Shown here: positions 5,951 through 8,277 of the stretch, piece after piece | How positions within the stretch are numbered: the stretch's first letter is position 1 | Layout: the number at the start of each line of letters is the position of its first letter | DNA from: an uncultured bacterium | GTDB taxonomy: Bacteria > Chlamydiota > Chlamydiia > Chlamydiales > SM23-39 | DNA length: 64,000 nucleotides | Direction: 5' to 3' | NCBI GenBank assembly: GCA_963716985.1 | Contig: OY970323.1 | Span: forward strand, 408,611 to 472,610 | Translations under genes and position numbers: made by a program | Notes under the pieces: generated by a model | Databases searched by the model: none | Told to the model about the DNA's origin: nothing | The model's input: the letters and a program-made list of their open reading frames with translations, nothing else

Positions 5951-7376
5951 GAAAAAAAATACCAAAAAATATCCAAAAACTCAACCTGCATCTGCATCTA
6001 ATTTTAGATTGGCTCCCATAAATCCGTGTGTTGCCGGTATAGACATTGGAGCCAGCTCTGTATTCATTTGTATCGGTTTTCCCGATGGGCACCAAGAAAT
6101 ACGCGAGTATTTAACCTTCACAGAGGATCTCAAGAACATGCTGTCCTGGATCCAACAGAATGAGATCCGGAGCGTAGCAATGGAATCTACCGGAGTATAC
6201 TGGATTCCGGTTTACGATATCTTGGCTCAGGCAGGGATAGATGTCATATTGGTAAATGCATATTACCTCAAAACAGTCCCGGGTAGAAAAACCGATGTAA
6301 AAGATTGCCAATGGATCCAACAATTACACGCCTACGGATTACTTAGAGGATCATTTCGTCCCGATGATGAAGGAGTCATACTTCGCGGATATGTGAGGCA
6401 GAGAAGCCGTTTATTTGAATTGGCCTCTCAGCAGGTGCAATTGATGCACAAAGCCCTCGTGCAAATGAATCTCCAACTCAATCACGTAGTGAGTGACATT
6501 ACGGGCGCTACAGGCATGAATATTATACGAGCGATTGTCTCTGGAGAACGATCTCCCTTAGTCTTAGCAAAATATCGAGATCCTCGATGCAAAAAAGATG
6601 AAAAAGAAATTGCAAAAGCTCTCGATGGCAACTATCGAGAGGAACATCTACTGGCGCTGAAACACGCTCTTGCAGCTTATGATTTTTTCCATCAACAGGC
6701 TTTGGAGTGCGAAGAGGCTATAGAGCAAGTACTGAAGAAATGGGAAGAAGCGCAACCGAAAAAAAATATGCCGGCTCCAAGATCGACTCCTGCAGAACAT
6801 TCAAGTAAAAATGGGCGAGGAACACAGAAAAAGACGAAATACAACCTCAGTCCATATCACTTTGAAGCAGAAGGTTCTCTCGAAAGAATTCTTCACGTCA
6901 ACTTGACTGACATTCCCGGACTGGACGTGAATGGGATTATAAAAATTCTAGGAGAGATTGGCATGGATATGTCCAAATGGCCGAGTGCGAAACATTTCGC
7001 TTCTTGGCTTGGGCTTTGTCCCGGCAACAAGATTTCCGGTGGCAAGATTTTGAGCGGCAAGACCAAGCCAACTGCCAACAGGGCAGCACAAGCATTACGC
7101 TTAGCAGCCAATGCCCTTTACCGCTCCAAAACAGCCCTTGGCGCCTATTTTCGTAGGATGCGAGCAAGACTCGGTGCTCCAAAAGCGATCACAGCGGCAG
7201 CACATAAACTTGCAAAAATTCTGTATACGATGCTGAAAGAGCGCAAAAATTTTACAGAAGTTGGACAAGCTGCATACGAACAGGCATATAAAGAAAGACA
7301 GCTATTGTCATTGCAGAAACGAGCACGAGAACTAGGATATGGGCTAGTGCTCTGTCACCCTTTAATTTTAGGATAA
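5949..7376 (+). CDS. IS110-family (DEDD) transposase/recombinase, apparently intact
   Basis: Motifs VAGIDIGASS, VAMESTGVYWIP and GRKTDVKDCQWI. The C-terminal domain has IPGLDVNGIIKILGEIG..F.SAKHFASWLGLCPGNKISGGK. The ATG at 5949 has an AGAGG RBS. The track ORF starts at a TTG at 5919. Confidence 0.85.
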   Translation: MKKNTKKYPKTQPASASNFRLAPINPCVAGIDIGASSVFICIGFPDGHQEIREYLTFTEDLKNMLSWIQQNEIRSVAMESTGVYWIPVYDILAQAGIDVILVNAYYLKTVPGRKTDVKDCQWIQQLHAYGLLRGSFRPDDEGVILRGYVRQRSRLFELASQQVQLMHKALVQMNLQLNHVVSDITGATGMNIIRAIVSGERSPLVLAKYRDPRCKKDEKEIAKALDGNYREEHLLALKHALAAYDFFHQQALECEEAIEQVLKKWEEAQPKKNMPAPRSTPAEHSSKNGRGTQKKTKYNLSPYHFEAEGSLERILHVNLTDIPGLDVNGIIKILGEIGMDMSKWPSAKHFASWLGLCPGNKISGGKILSGKTKPTANRAAQALRLAANALYRSKTALGAYFRRMRARLGAPKAITAAAHKLAKILYTMLKERKNFTEVGQAAYEQAYKERQLLSLQKRARELGYGLVLCHPLILG

Positions 7377-7445
7377 ATTGACTTGAGTTTATGCCGACCG
7401 TTGCCAAACTTATAATCCTAAATTTTAACTATGACAGAGCACTAG
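7344..7445. repeat. 102-bp palindromic repeat, copy 1 (overlaps the last 11 codons of the IS110 ORF)
   Basis: CTAGTGCTCTGTCA...TGACAGAGCACTAG termini plus an internal AATTTTAGGAT/ATCCTAAATTT pairing. It matches copy 2 at 101 of 102 positions. Confidence 0.85.
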
Positions 7446-7852
7446 TAGCTTGCTAAAAACAAAAATCAACTAAAACTTACAGGTAATCAAGCAAACTTTC
7501 AACGACTTTAAAGGCCGGAAATGCATTGGTGCTAAACGCCCGATTATGAGCTTGGTCTGCATCATCACCGATAACATCATTGGTGAGATCGTTTGTCGTA
7601 AGACCGACGATCATCCCGTTTTAGAAGAGTGCGCAGTATAGAGTGATGAGCAAGTTTAAAGAAAGTTTGTGTAACCATGGACAGGAGACCCACATGTGAA
7701 CTTATTTAGAAGCAGTTGCCAATACCACAACATTTTTCTAAAAGCTCTTGCATAAATCCCTCCTGTTAAGATTGGAAGGAATATATTACTATTTGTTGAT
7801 CTTGGATCCAAGAGGGCTTTTCATGGATTATTGTGAGGCGACGAAGACGCAC

Positions 7853-8116
7853 TCATGGGCGTTTTAATAGAACAACTTTCATTCCCTGACATTCGATAGC
7901 AACGCCTGGGTCCGTCTTAGTTTCTTCATAGAGCTCTTGAAAAGAGTCGCGTGTTATCTGAGATTTTTCAGGGAAGCGCTTATCCCAATACAGGAAAGAA
8001 TTGTAATTTACCTGCTGCTCACGACACCAACGCGCCATGCTTAATCCGCTAATGCGTTGCGTCTGCACTTTTTCTTGCCAGATGCGTCTTTTTTCTTCTG
8101 GGAACGGTCTTGGCAT
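7853..8116 (-). pseudogene. IS66-family accessory protein TnpA-like orphan (no tnpB/tnpC follows)
   Basis: MPRPFPEEKRRIWQEKVQTQRISGLSMARWCREQQVNYNSFLYWDKRF resembles the HTH of IS66 orf1 proteins. The track ORF extends into repeat copy 2. The downstream 400 bp has only broken frames. Confidence 0.55.
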
Positions 8117-8175
8117 AACACTCCTTTGGTTAAGAAAAACCAGAGTGCCATGACGAAGGAAAACAAAAAAGATGG

Positions 8176-8277
8176 CTAGTGCTCTGTCACCCTCTAATTT
8201 TAGGATAAATTGACTTGAGTTTATGCCGACCGTTGCCAAACTTATAATCCTAAATTTTAACTATGACAGAGCACTAG
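8176..8277. repeat. 102-bp palindromic repeat, copy 2
   Basis: One mismatch to copy 1 (T to C). It ends one base from the stop codon (8279-8281) of the 8279-8743 gene. Confidence 0.85.

Follow-up and report, generated by a model that had tools for sequence, protein, structure and literature searches.

The window analysed here, a 64-kb stretch of DNA, contains two direct copies of a palindromic repeat, and the boundaries of five nested mobile elements between 4930 and 8290 could be corrected. The features of this segment are as follows.

4930-4969, plus strand: IS66-type end free of the repeat (GTAACCGTCTAATCTACCCATCTTTTT...), a paralogue of the empty site
4970-5699, minus strand: IS-B, a second IS110-family element, truncated (Pfam DEDD_Tnp_IS110), with its 5' part at 7728-7861 and its ATG at 7753
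5692-5699 (left) and 7720-7727 (right), no strand: 8-bp target duplication of MITE-Y, CAATACCA
5700-5808, no strand: left 109 bp of MITE-Y, an IS66-family MITE (115 bp), recognized from solo metagenome copies and an autonomous IS66-type partner
5809-7713, plus strand: IS-A, the IS110-family carrier of copy 1 (Pfam DEDD_Tnp_IS110 and Transposase_20; three identical copies; junctions compared with relatives)
7344-7445: copy 1 of the putative MITE; element 7347-7442 (96 nt), TA at 7345-7346 and 7443-7444 within CTAG, among the final codons of the IS110-family transposase gene
7446-7713, plus strand: non-coding 3' part of IS-A, conserved and a candidate for its bridge/seek RNA, with a guide-like segment co-varying with the left flank
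7714-7719, no strand: remaining 6 nt (AGTTGC) of the MITE-Y repeat split by IS-A
7862-8290, minus strand: 5' part of an IS66-family element, the carrier of copy 2 (99.5% match to positions 19-447 of locus L075)
8176-8277: copy 2 of the putative MITE; element 8179-8274, TA at 8177-8178 and 8275-8276, 13 nt inside the left tip of the IS66-family element
8279-8743, minus strand: orphan ORF cut short by the IS66 composite; no Pfam match

Repeat finding and self-blastn delimited a direct repeat of 104 nt (7342-7445 and 8174-8277) with a spacing of 832 bp, identical at 103 of 104 positions, the sole mismatch being T7362 versus C8194. No third copy was detected by self-blastn in the 64-kb window. The palindrome is closed by perfect 14-nt arms (CTAGTGCTCTGTCA/TGACAGAGCACTAG), which reach 31 nt at 84% complementarity and enclose a 40-nt interior. 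Its predicted RNA fold has an energy of -37.6 kcal/mol (z = -6.6) and its DNA fold one of -21 kcal/mol (z = -7.0); 0 of 200 shuffles were equally stable in either case. The duplicated palindromic element with a long hairpin described in the first-pass annotation was thus confirmed, together with its 14-bp terminal arms, except that the inner helix, previously given as 11 bp, comprises 8 perfect pairs (TTTAGGAT/ATCCTAAA). At 96 nt the element lies within the size range of MITEs (<300 bp), and it has no coding capacity, as the ORFs crossing it are only read-throughs from the flanks. Rfam returned no match at either copy at the gathering threshold, and one meaningless miRNA-model match, to copy 2 only, at E <= 10.

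Copy 1 lies within IS-A, which encodes its transposase at 5949-7376, has the core AGC at both junctions (5806-5808 and 7711-7713) and runs 268 bp beyond the copy, to 7713. Relatives of IS-A with the same ends and 80% DNA identity (L090-L099) are colinear with it except that window positions 7343-7440 are absent, 98 bp corresponding to the 96-nt element plus TA. The empty site in these relatives reads GGGC-TA-GTAGCT. The insertion, into a CTAG that precedes the stop of the transposase gene by four codons, converted the C-terminus ...LVAC* into ...LVLCHPLILG*. The overlap with the 3' end of the transposase gene had been recognized before, although it covers 10 codons and the stop (LVLCHPLILG*) rather than 11. 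Nine homologous transposases without the element-encoded tail are 465-473 aa long, as compared with 475 aa, and the C-terminus ...ELGYGLVAC of P0003, P0004 and P0005 is exactly the one predicted by removing the element. At the protein level only, a MITE-free paralogue from the same genome (P0123, 469 aa, ...GYGLVAC) falls into the same 90% cluster as the MITE-bearing P0001; both proteins are listed with a longest contig of 2,067,739 bp. The IS-A copies in the window and at L001 and L003 are 100% identical, with the element internal in all three and with differing flanks. Because three identical MITE-bearing copies occur with different flanks, copy 1 is best described as a passenger of IS-A, which evidently moved after gaining it.

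Copy 2 resides in an IS66-family element, of which the tip (GTAATCGTCTAAT, 8290-8278) and a tnpA remnant starting at 8116 and broken at 7862 are left. An orthologous copy 2 is found at L075 beside an intact IS66 element, in which tnpA, tnpB and tnpC are all preserved. There, tnpA starts at the equivalent of 8116, in agreement with the earlier annotation of the IS66-remnant ORF as falsely extended by copy 2; the false extension spans 7853-8239. The filled IS66 end reads GTAA(G/T)CGTCTAATCTA[element+TA]GCCATCTTTTTT, and the MITE-free paralogous end GTAACCGTCTAATCTACCCATCTTTTT. The outer flanks of the MITE-bearing IS66 element at L075 differ from those in the window, and this carrier, too, moved after gaining the MITE. 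The segment from 4930 to 8290 forms a composite unit bounded by an 8-bp duplication, TCTAATTC (4922-4929) and TTTAATTC (8291-8298). As annotated at first, copy 2 ends at 8277, one base from the ORF 8279-8743. The last four codons and the stop of this ORF (KVIV*) derive from the 13-nt IS66 tip between the ORF and copy 2, and the ORF gains 37 codons once 4930-8298 is removed. The position of the copies exactly at ORF ends is incidental, because the proximity of copy 1 to a stop codon stems from its CTAG target and that of copy 2 from the IS66 tip. The MITE accounts for the false ORF extension, the altered transposase C-terminus and the seeming preference for gene ends.

The 730 bp between the copies had been thought to hold only IS66 debris. 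Instead, four distinct parts are found there: 7446-7861 comprises the 3' non-coding region of IS-A, the tip of MITE-Y with its target duplication (7714-7727) and the 5' end of IS-B (7728-7861), and 7862-8116 is the IS66 tnpA remnant. In the left part of MITE-Y, an intact 22-nt inverted repeat (GCAACTGCTCATAAAGTTGAGG) is followed by a 71-nt spacer and then by the initial 16 nt of the second repeat; IS-A splits the second repeat at this point. Solo MITE-Y copies of 112-116 bp with 8-bp duplications occur in metagenomes, and the autonomous partner encodes DDE_Tnp_IS66. MITE-Y plus IS-A interrupt IS-B at about codon 10, and removing 5700-7727 restores the disrupted N-terminus of IS-B, MQELLEKCCGIDVHQESL.... 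The 2020-bp unit 5700-7719 had been considered as an IS110 element with 15-bp terminal repeats, 8-bp duplications and an invertible 71-nt spacer, an idea that was dropped after the solo copies and the IS66-type partner of MITE-Y were found. The spacer only appears inverted because the IS sits in either repeat of the symmetric MITE-Y.

The target of IS-A, CCTCAACTTTATGAGC^AGTTGC, is the inverted repeat of an IS66-family MITE or IS. The same junction was observed at seven loci with IS-A or P0007-type elements (the window, L001, L003 and L090-L093), a nearly identical target for P0015 (TCTCAACTTTATGAGC^AGTTGC) and a related variant for P0033 (ACTTTATGAGC^ACTTAC). The proposal that an IS110 element inserted into a palindromic repeat was thus correct in kind, the repeat being that of the IS66-family MITE (5700-5808 and 7714-7719), and wrong in naming copy 1 as the target. 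Conservation of the 3' non-coding region at 7446-7713 extends to relatives as distant as 68% protein identity, and the region contains guide-like segments: TTATGAGC at 7544-7551 is identical to the left target flank, and TTTAGAAG at 7620-7627 to the right end of IS-A. In three element types, an 8-mer of this region changes together with the left flank (TTATGAGC, TTTTGAGC and TCTCGAGC). IS-A is probably an IS1111-type element with its guide RNA 3' of the transposase, where we infer the pairing from covariation only.

To find further members of the MITE family, GTDB genomes were searched with the pattern GTGCTCTGTCA-N65-95-TGACAGAGCAC, by which the tip bases are fixed. The pattern matched 86 loci where, by our own arithmetic, about 1-2 were expected. 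They represent 84 distinct insertions, which measure 96-123 bp when the CTA/TAG flanks are counted and vary in their hairpin interiors, and their hosts are Planctomycetota, Chloroflexota, Desulfobacterota and other MAGs, with at least 13 copies in a single Planctomycetaceae MAG. The search thereby documents, in at least four phyla, a MITE family whose 14-nt ends are invariant. The outward flanks prefer T at +1 (82%), A at +2 (83%) and G at +3 (89%) and are random from +4. Conserved within the element are positions 1-11, as set by the search pattern, and 25-28 (GGGT, 77-92%), so that the ends can be described as terminal inverted repeats of about 30 nt in which the tip, GTGCTCTGTCA, is invariant and is followed by a subterminal A/T-rich...GGGT box. 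The G...C ends of the element are likewise fixed by the pattern, a TA and a 4-bp CTAG duplication are inseparable on sequence alone, and a relaxed re-scan of the family loci gave no information on this choice. Among the loci examined, the host species has only two primary sites, each inside an IS.

The parentage of the family is indicated by its ends. The first ~47 nt of the MITE align (matches of 47-50 nt) to the exact termini of annotated IS630-family ISs on Methylobacter and Acaryochloris plasmids; the matches are short (E = 0.02 for the best, and 3) and gain weight from falling exactly at the ends of the ISs. A 38-nt end of the MITE is ~80% identical to the ends of autonomous IS630-family ISs. 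The matching Methylobacter and Acaryochloris elements are 1.22 kb long, lie in cTA...TAg and encode an HTH ORF and a DDE_3 ORF. These autonomous relatives have their end architecture in common with the MITE, which differs by the lack of a transposase gene. No IS630-type transposase was found in the 64-kb window, nor one with matching ends in ~550 kb flanking family members. No autonomous partner emerged beside family members, whether from pairs of ends spaced 0.3-4 kb, from solo ends or from ORFs that recurred there; these ORFs were housekeeping genes. A scan of viral contigs returned only one truncated match of no use.

We consider it highly probable, at roughly 90%, that the 102-bp unit is a non-autonomous MITE derived from IS630-family ISs, inserted in CTAG and carried by two larger ISs. 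The MITE reading had already been offered in the first-pass annotation and is now supported, with IS630 assigned as the family. The evidence seen in the sequences consists of presence and absence with TA duplication, the spread of the family, the flank preference, the likeness to IS630 ends and the occurrence of the carriers at several sites. For its movement, we infer a cut-and-paste mechanism with the transposase supplied in trans. An IS630-type DDE transposase would excise the 96-nt element and paste it into the TA within CTAG, duplicating the TA. Two such insertions in the host genome, one into the end of the IS110-family transposase gene and one into a CTAG 13 nt inside the IS66 terminal repeat, have since been copied as passengers, both carriers having remained mobile.

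Other explanations for the palindrome were weighed against this one. IS110-family elements target palindromic repeats (PMC12288879), and copy 1 adjoins the 3' end of a transposase ORF, so that it could be a REP-like target. However, the IS extends 268 bp past the palindrome, three copies at unrelated loci hold it internally, relatives with the same ends precisely lack it, and the actual target is the IS66-type inverted repeat, which makes this extremely unlikely. The same low estimate applies to the view that the hairpin forms part of the bridge/seek RNA of IS-A. Its position, after the transposase stop and ahead of the conserved 3' non-coding region, would suit this, and the guide RNA of IS1111-type elements is encoded 3' of the transposase (PMC12288879), but the hairpin is missing in all relatives, whereas 7446-7713 is conserved. 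A local segmental duplication might be suspected from just two window copies, 832 bp apart in direct orientation and with two additional left bases (GG) in common. Its probability is close to nil, given that homology ends at the element on either side and that a large same-ended family exists in other phyla. The possibility, raised at first pass, that the element is unique to this locus is likewise contradicted by IS copies at L001, L003 and L075 that carry the same element.

An intrinsic, possibly bidirectional terminator selected at gene ends, also proposed at first, would suit a very stable hairpin with both copies adjoining stop codons and, on the minus strand of copy 2, TTTTTTGTTTT following after 5 nt. 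We regard it as very unlikely: the stem holds a 40-nt structured interior, no T-run adjoins it, and a consensus scan of 7200-8900 called two other sites and neither copy, while the T-run near copy 2 is part of the IS66 end and recurs at the paralogous end that lacks the MITE. The hairpin may incidentally attenuate read-through. Equally slim are the chances of a REP/BIME moved by a RAYT (Y1) transposase or of an IS5-family MITE with a 4-bp CTAG duplication. The element is indeed palindromic and multi-copy, and the IS5-derived MITEPsy1 uses CTAG with a 4-nt duplication. Yet REPs measure 20-40 nt and have no flanking target duplications, unlike the 96-nt element with its TA duplication, and the ends align to IS630-family termini (DDE_3), not to IS5-type ends.

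As an IS630-type MITE, the element is ordinary, and nothing about it is surprising in kind. RUP (repeat unit of pneumococcus, 107 bp) and the cyanobacterial Nezha are IS630-derived MITEs. They resemble the present family as non-coding, hairpin-forming, multi-copy repeats of ~100-130 bp related to IS630 with TA duplication; the MITE described here differs in its ends (CTAGTGCTCTGTCA...GGGT), its spread over Planctomycetota, Chloroflexota, Desulfobacterota and the present host-associated bacterium, and the location of both known sites inside ISs. Correia elements (CREE) of Neisseria, ~100-155 bp long with inverted repeats and TA duplication, often lie at gene ends and have documented promoter and IHF-site effects. 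Size, TA duplication and gene-end position are similar, but the sequence is unrelated. Searching the literature by keyword found no description of the family, and searching by sequence gave primer coincidences only. According to the titles of Tenzen 1990/1991, as cited in PMC2170065, IS630 inserts at TA in CTAG, and TA duplication has been shown for ISY100 (PMC2170065). The MITE resembles IS630/ISY100 of the IS630-Tc1-mariner superfamily in TA duplication and CTAG preference (PMC2170065). The IS630 in pSS_046 also lies in cTA...TAg, but its repeats (AATAGCTGCGC...) are unrelated to the MITE. MITEPsy1 of Pseudomonas syringae, a 100-nt IS5-derived element inserting at CTAG or YTAA with a 4-nt duplication, is alike in size and CTAG insertion and differs in its ends, GGAAGGTCTGAAAAAGCC (PMC3189936).

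A more far-reaching proposal, which we rate as rather unlikely, is that the CTAGTGCTCTGTCA-ended hairpins are not routine IS630 debris but constitute a cosmopolitan MITE lineage that, through its invariant tips, regenerates CTAG at both junctions with each insertion and so seeds its own nesting. In genomes without its transposase, it would survive purely by hitchhiking in RNA-guided IS110-family and IS66 elements, and copy 1, with the recombinase gene on one side and the guide RNA on the other, might modulate the expression of both.

The carrier IS-A also has known counterparts. IS4321/IS5075 of the IS1111 group sit in the inverted repeats of Tn21-family transposons, and ISPpu9 in REPs. Like IS4321/IS5075, IS-A takes a fixed position and orientation in the terminal repeat of another transposon and has its guide region 3' of the transposase (PMC12288879). 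It differs from these and from ISPpu9 in that its target is an IS66-family repeat or MITE tip, with the pairing deduced from covariation only. The circle junction of IS-A is predicted to read ...TTATTTAGAAGC|TCCTCACCGG. As a by-product of this analysis, an IS110-family clade homing to IS66-family terminal repeats was obtained, offering a natural test set for the target rules of bridge/seek RNAs.

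The 104-nt direct repeat at 7342-7445 (copy 1) and 8174-8277 (copy 2) differs between its copies by a single mismatch (T7362/C8194), and repeat search and self-blastn found no third copy within the 64-kb window. In each copy the terminal arms are perfect over 14 nt (CTAGTGCTCTGTCA and TGACAGAGCACTAG) and 84% complementary over 31 nt; the fold reaches -37.6 kcal/mol as RNA (z = -6.6 against shuffled controls) and z = -7.0 as DNA. The first-pass annotation had described the repeat correctly in general, except that the inner helix comprises 8 perfect pairs and that copy 1, rightly placed over the end of a transposase ORF, supplies 10 codons plus the stop to it. 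The repeat is an ordinary IS630-family MITE, a real feature whose main interest lies in its nesting and in how widely the family is spread. The nested layers are as follows.

4922-8298: IS66 composite with its 8-bp duplication, the outermost layer
4970-5699 and 7728-7861, minus strand: IS-B, a truncated second IS110-family element, inside the IS66 composite
5700-5808 and 7714-7719: MITE-Y, a 115-bp IS66-family MITE, inside IS-B
5809-7713: IS-A, an IS110-family element, inside the MITE-Y repeat
7342-7445: MITE copy 1, inside the 3' end of the IS-A transposase
8174-8277: MITE copy 2, in the IS66 tip

Removal of 5700-7727 restores the reading frame of IS-B as MQELLEKCCGIDVHQESL...

The IS-A transposase (5949-7376; Pfam DEDD_Tnp_IS110 and Transposase_20) was found by exact-protein look-up at two more loci beyond the window's own (L001 and L003), both of which are 100% identical to the window across 5793-7719 by blastn, with different flanks. 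The palindrome was thus carried internally in three insertions, not at the edge of IS-A, which speaks against the proposal that copy 1 was the IS110 target. Related database loci (L090-L099, ~80% DNA identity) are colinear with IS-A except for the absence of 7343-7440, 98 bp corresponding to the 96-nt element and one TA. Excision of the element and TA from the window predicts the frame GGG CTA GTA GCT TGC TAA, that is ...GYGLVAC*. The MITE-encoded tail is absent from 9/9 homologous transposases retrieved, three of which (P0003, P0004 and P0005) end exactly in ...ELGYGLVAC, the others being close variants; a 469-aa protein from the same 90% cluster as the 475-aa MITE-bearing transposase likewise ends in ...GYGLVAC. 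Judged by this clean filled/empty comparison, copy 1 is read as an insertion at CTAG four codons ahead of the transposase stop, with duplication of TA.

Copy 2 has a different carrier. A MAG labelled 'uncultured Verrucomicrobiae bacterium' (L075), found in the GTDB scan, matches window 8290-7862 at 99.5% with the same MITE aboard, followed by an intact IS66 with Pfam-confirmed tnpB and tnpC and an intact tnpA ORF without Pfam match. Because the homology starts exactly at the classical IS66 tip, GTAAGCG (GTAATCG at 8290 in the window), copy 2 lies within the terminal repeat of the IS66, 13 nt from its tip. The second IS66-type end, without the MITE, reads GTAACCGTCTAATCTACCCATCTTTTT (L075 2883-2844 and window 4930-4969), and the filled end reads GTAA(G/T)CGTCTAATCTA, the element plus TA, and GCCATCTTTTTT. 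The outer flank of IS66 in L075 differs from that in the window, so the IS66 carrier, too, is present at more than one site with the MITE aboard. Within the window, a composite (4930-8290) is delimited by these two ends and flanked by TCTAATTC and TTTAATTC; its in-silico deletion lengthens ORF 8279-8743 by 37 codons. The stop of this ORF, correctly located one base from copy 2 by the first-pass annotation, is therefore supplied by the IS66 tip and not by copy 2.

A local duplication confined to this locus is excluded by copies of the element elsewhere. Scanning GTDB genomes with the pattern GTGCTCTGTCA-N(65-95)-TGACAGAGCAC gave 86 loci versus ~1-2 expected by chance, by our own arithmetic for a self-reverse-complementary pattern with 22 fixed bases and 31 spacings in 596 Gb. 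The hosts include Planctomycetota (among them Kuenenia and Fuerstiella), Chloroflexota (including Ktedonobacter), Desulfobacterota-type MAGs and others, with at least 13 copies in one Planctomycetaceae MAG. The 84 distinct insertions span 96-123 bp counting the CTA/TAG flanks, and their hairpin interiors are unrelated. Outward from either end, the flank reads T (82%), A (83%), G (89%) and is random beyond, which indicates that the family inserts at TA within CTAG. GGGT at element positions 25-28 is conserved at 77-92%, giving a bipartite repeat of ~28 nt. Each insertion regenerates CTAG at both junctions, in keeping with how often copies lie side by side or nested in one another (e.g. L041; right flanks starting TAGTGC...). 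A look-alike of the MITE tip with two mismatches (60189-60202), probably due to chance, lies inside a 474-aa ORF (59869-61293) without Pfam match just after the rRNA operon (53601-58647).

In blastn against plasmids, the element matched annotated IS630-family ISs from Methylobacter sp. YRD-M1 (E = 0.02) and Acaryochloris precisely at their termini; both ISs are ~1.22 kb, lie within cTA...TAg and carry an HTH ORF with a DDE_3 ORF after it. The MITE end CTAGTGCTCTGTCACCCTTTAATTTTAGGATAAATTG aligns with an end of each, CTAGTGCATTGTCACAGCTTAATTTTAGGGTAAATGG and CTAGTGCATCGTCAATATTTAATTTTAGGGTAGA, and AACGCTAAGAAT is common to the other end of the Methylobacter IS and the Planctomycetaceae MITE. 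IS630 insertion takes place at the TA of 5'-CTAG-3', and ISY100 transposes by cut-and-paste with TA duplication (PMC2170065 and references therein). The type element IS630 shares the cTA...TAg flanks of the MITE, although its repeats are unrelated. By its termini, the parent family of the MITE is IS630. No cognate IS630-type transposase was found in the window or in DNA near family members, so that mobilisation in trans is an inference.

The flanks alone could also reflect an IS5-type origin, as for MITEPsy1 with its 4-bp CTAG duplication (PMC3189936), since TA and CTAG duplications are indistinguishable by them; the IS630-type ends contradict this origin. A role of the hairpin as a bidirectional terminator, another first-pass option, is not supported: no T-run adjoins it, the arms enclose a 40-nt interior, a consensus terminator scan calls neither copy, and the T-run that follows copy 2 is part of the IS66 terminus. 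Absence of the hairpin from all IS-A relatives excludes it as part of the IS-A guide RNA. The MITE option of the same annotation is borne out by precise filled/empty sites, TA duplication and IS630-type ends.

The true target of IS-A is the inverted repeat of MITE-Y. At three loci, GCAACTGCTCATAAAGTTGAGG, a 71-nt spacer and CCTCAACTTTATGAGC lie left of IS-A and AGTTGC right of it, and the whole unit is bracketed by direct repeats of CAATACCA (window), AAAAAGT (L001) or GATTTTTT (L003). Rejoined, the flanks make up an element of 115 bp whose inverted repeats, G(C/T)AACTGCTCATAAAGTTGAGG, are perfect over 22 nt. Metagenomes contain solo copies of 112-116 bp with 8-bp duplications (L139, L145, L159, L181, L193) and partners of 1.9-2.3 kb with the same ends that encode a DDE_Tnp_IS66 transposase (L103, L123); this autonomous IS66-family partner has a single ORF. 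A 20-mer from the repeat occurs at 112 metagenome loci. The spacer in the window is inverted relative to L001 and L003, which means that IS-A can occupy either repeat of the symmetric MITE-Y, at constant position and orientation.

Among relatives, P0007 shares the junction CCTCAACTTTATGAGC^AGTTGC, P0015 has TCTCAACTTTATGAGC^AGTTGC and P0033, whose element adjoins IS66 tnpA/B/C, has ACTTTATGAGC^ACTTAC; in L090-92 the left flank continues into an IS66-type transposase N-terminus. These common junctions define IS-A proper as 5809-7713, with AGC at both junctions. IS-A and its relatives (L090-L099, L214-L222) home to the tips of terminal repeats of the IS66 family. The closest precedent is IS4321/IS5075, which Partridge and Hall reportedly described in 2003 in Tn21-family repeats (cited in PMC12288879). 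A P0005-type relative (L096 231-2192/L097 294-2254) lies inside another kind of unit, one with 36-nt inverted repeats at its ends, suggesting that embedding in palindromic elements extends to further members of the clade.

Conservation of the 3' non-coding region of IS-A (7446-7713) extends to relatives with as little as 68% protein identity. Two segments within it repeat sequences at the junctions: TTATGAGC (7544-7551) is the same as the left target flank, and TTTAGAAG (7620-7627) the same as the right end of IS-A. P0005-type elements have TTTTGAGC as internal segment and CTTTTGAGC as left flank; P0045-type elements have TCTCGAGC at both places. The 8-mer therefore co-varies with the left flank across three types (TTATGAGC/TTTTGAGC/TCTCGAGC), as predicted for the bridge/seek RNA that IS1111-group elements encode 3' of the transposase (PMC12288879), for which 7446-7713 is a candidate.

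Downstream, a 94% identical inverted repeat (9100-9238/13844-13975), each arm with ~52-nt internal repeats, brackets IstB (9280-9930) and a Mu-like/IstA ORF (12094-13776) on the minus strand; the unit 9100-13975 looks like an IS21-family element. A group II intron (10454-11892) lies between its two genes.

10454-11809: RT/maturase ORF of the group II intron
11808-11892: Intron_gpII (Rfam)

The 3' part of a tRNA (21000-21072) recurs 8.7 kb downstream as a ~60-nt repeat (84%; 21023-21082/29705-29762), and the pair, which brackets a 2023-aa and a 661-aa ORF, may delimit an island integrated at the tRNA. An ankyrin and RING-finger ORF (14299-15249) and an ankyrin-repeat ORF (62180-63361; DNA tandem periodicity of ~102 nt at 62208-63058) encode eukaryote-like domains, suggesting a host-associated, amoeba-symbiont-like bacterium.
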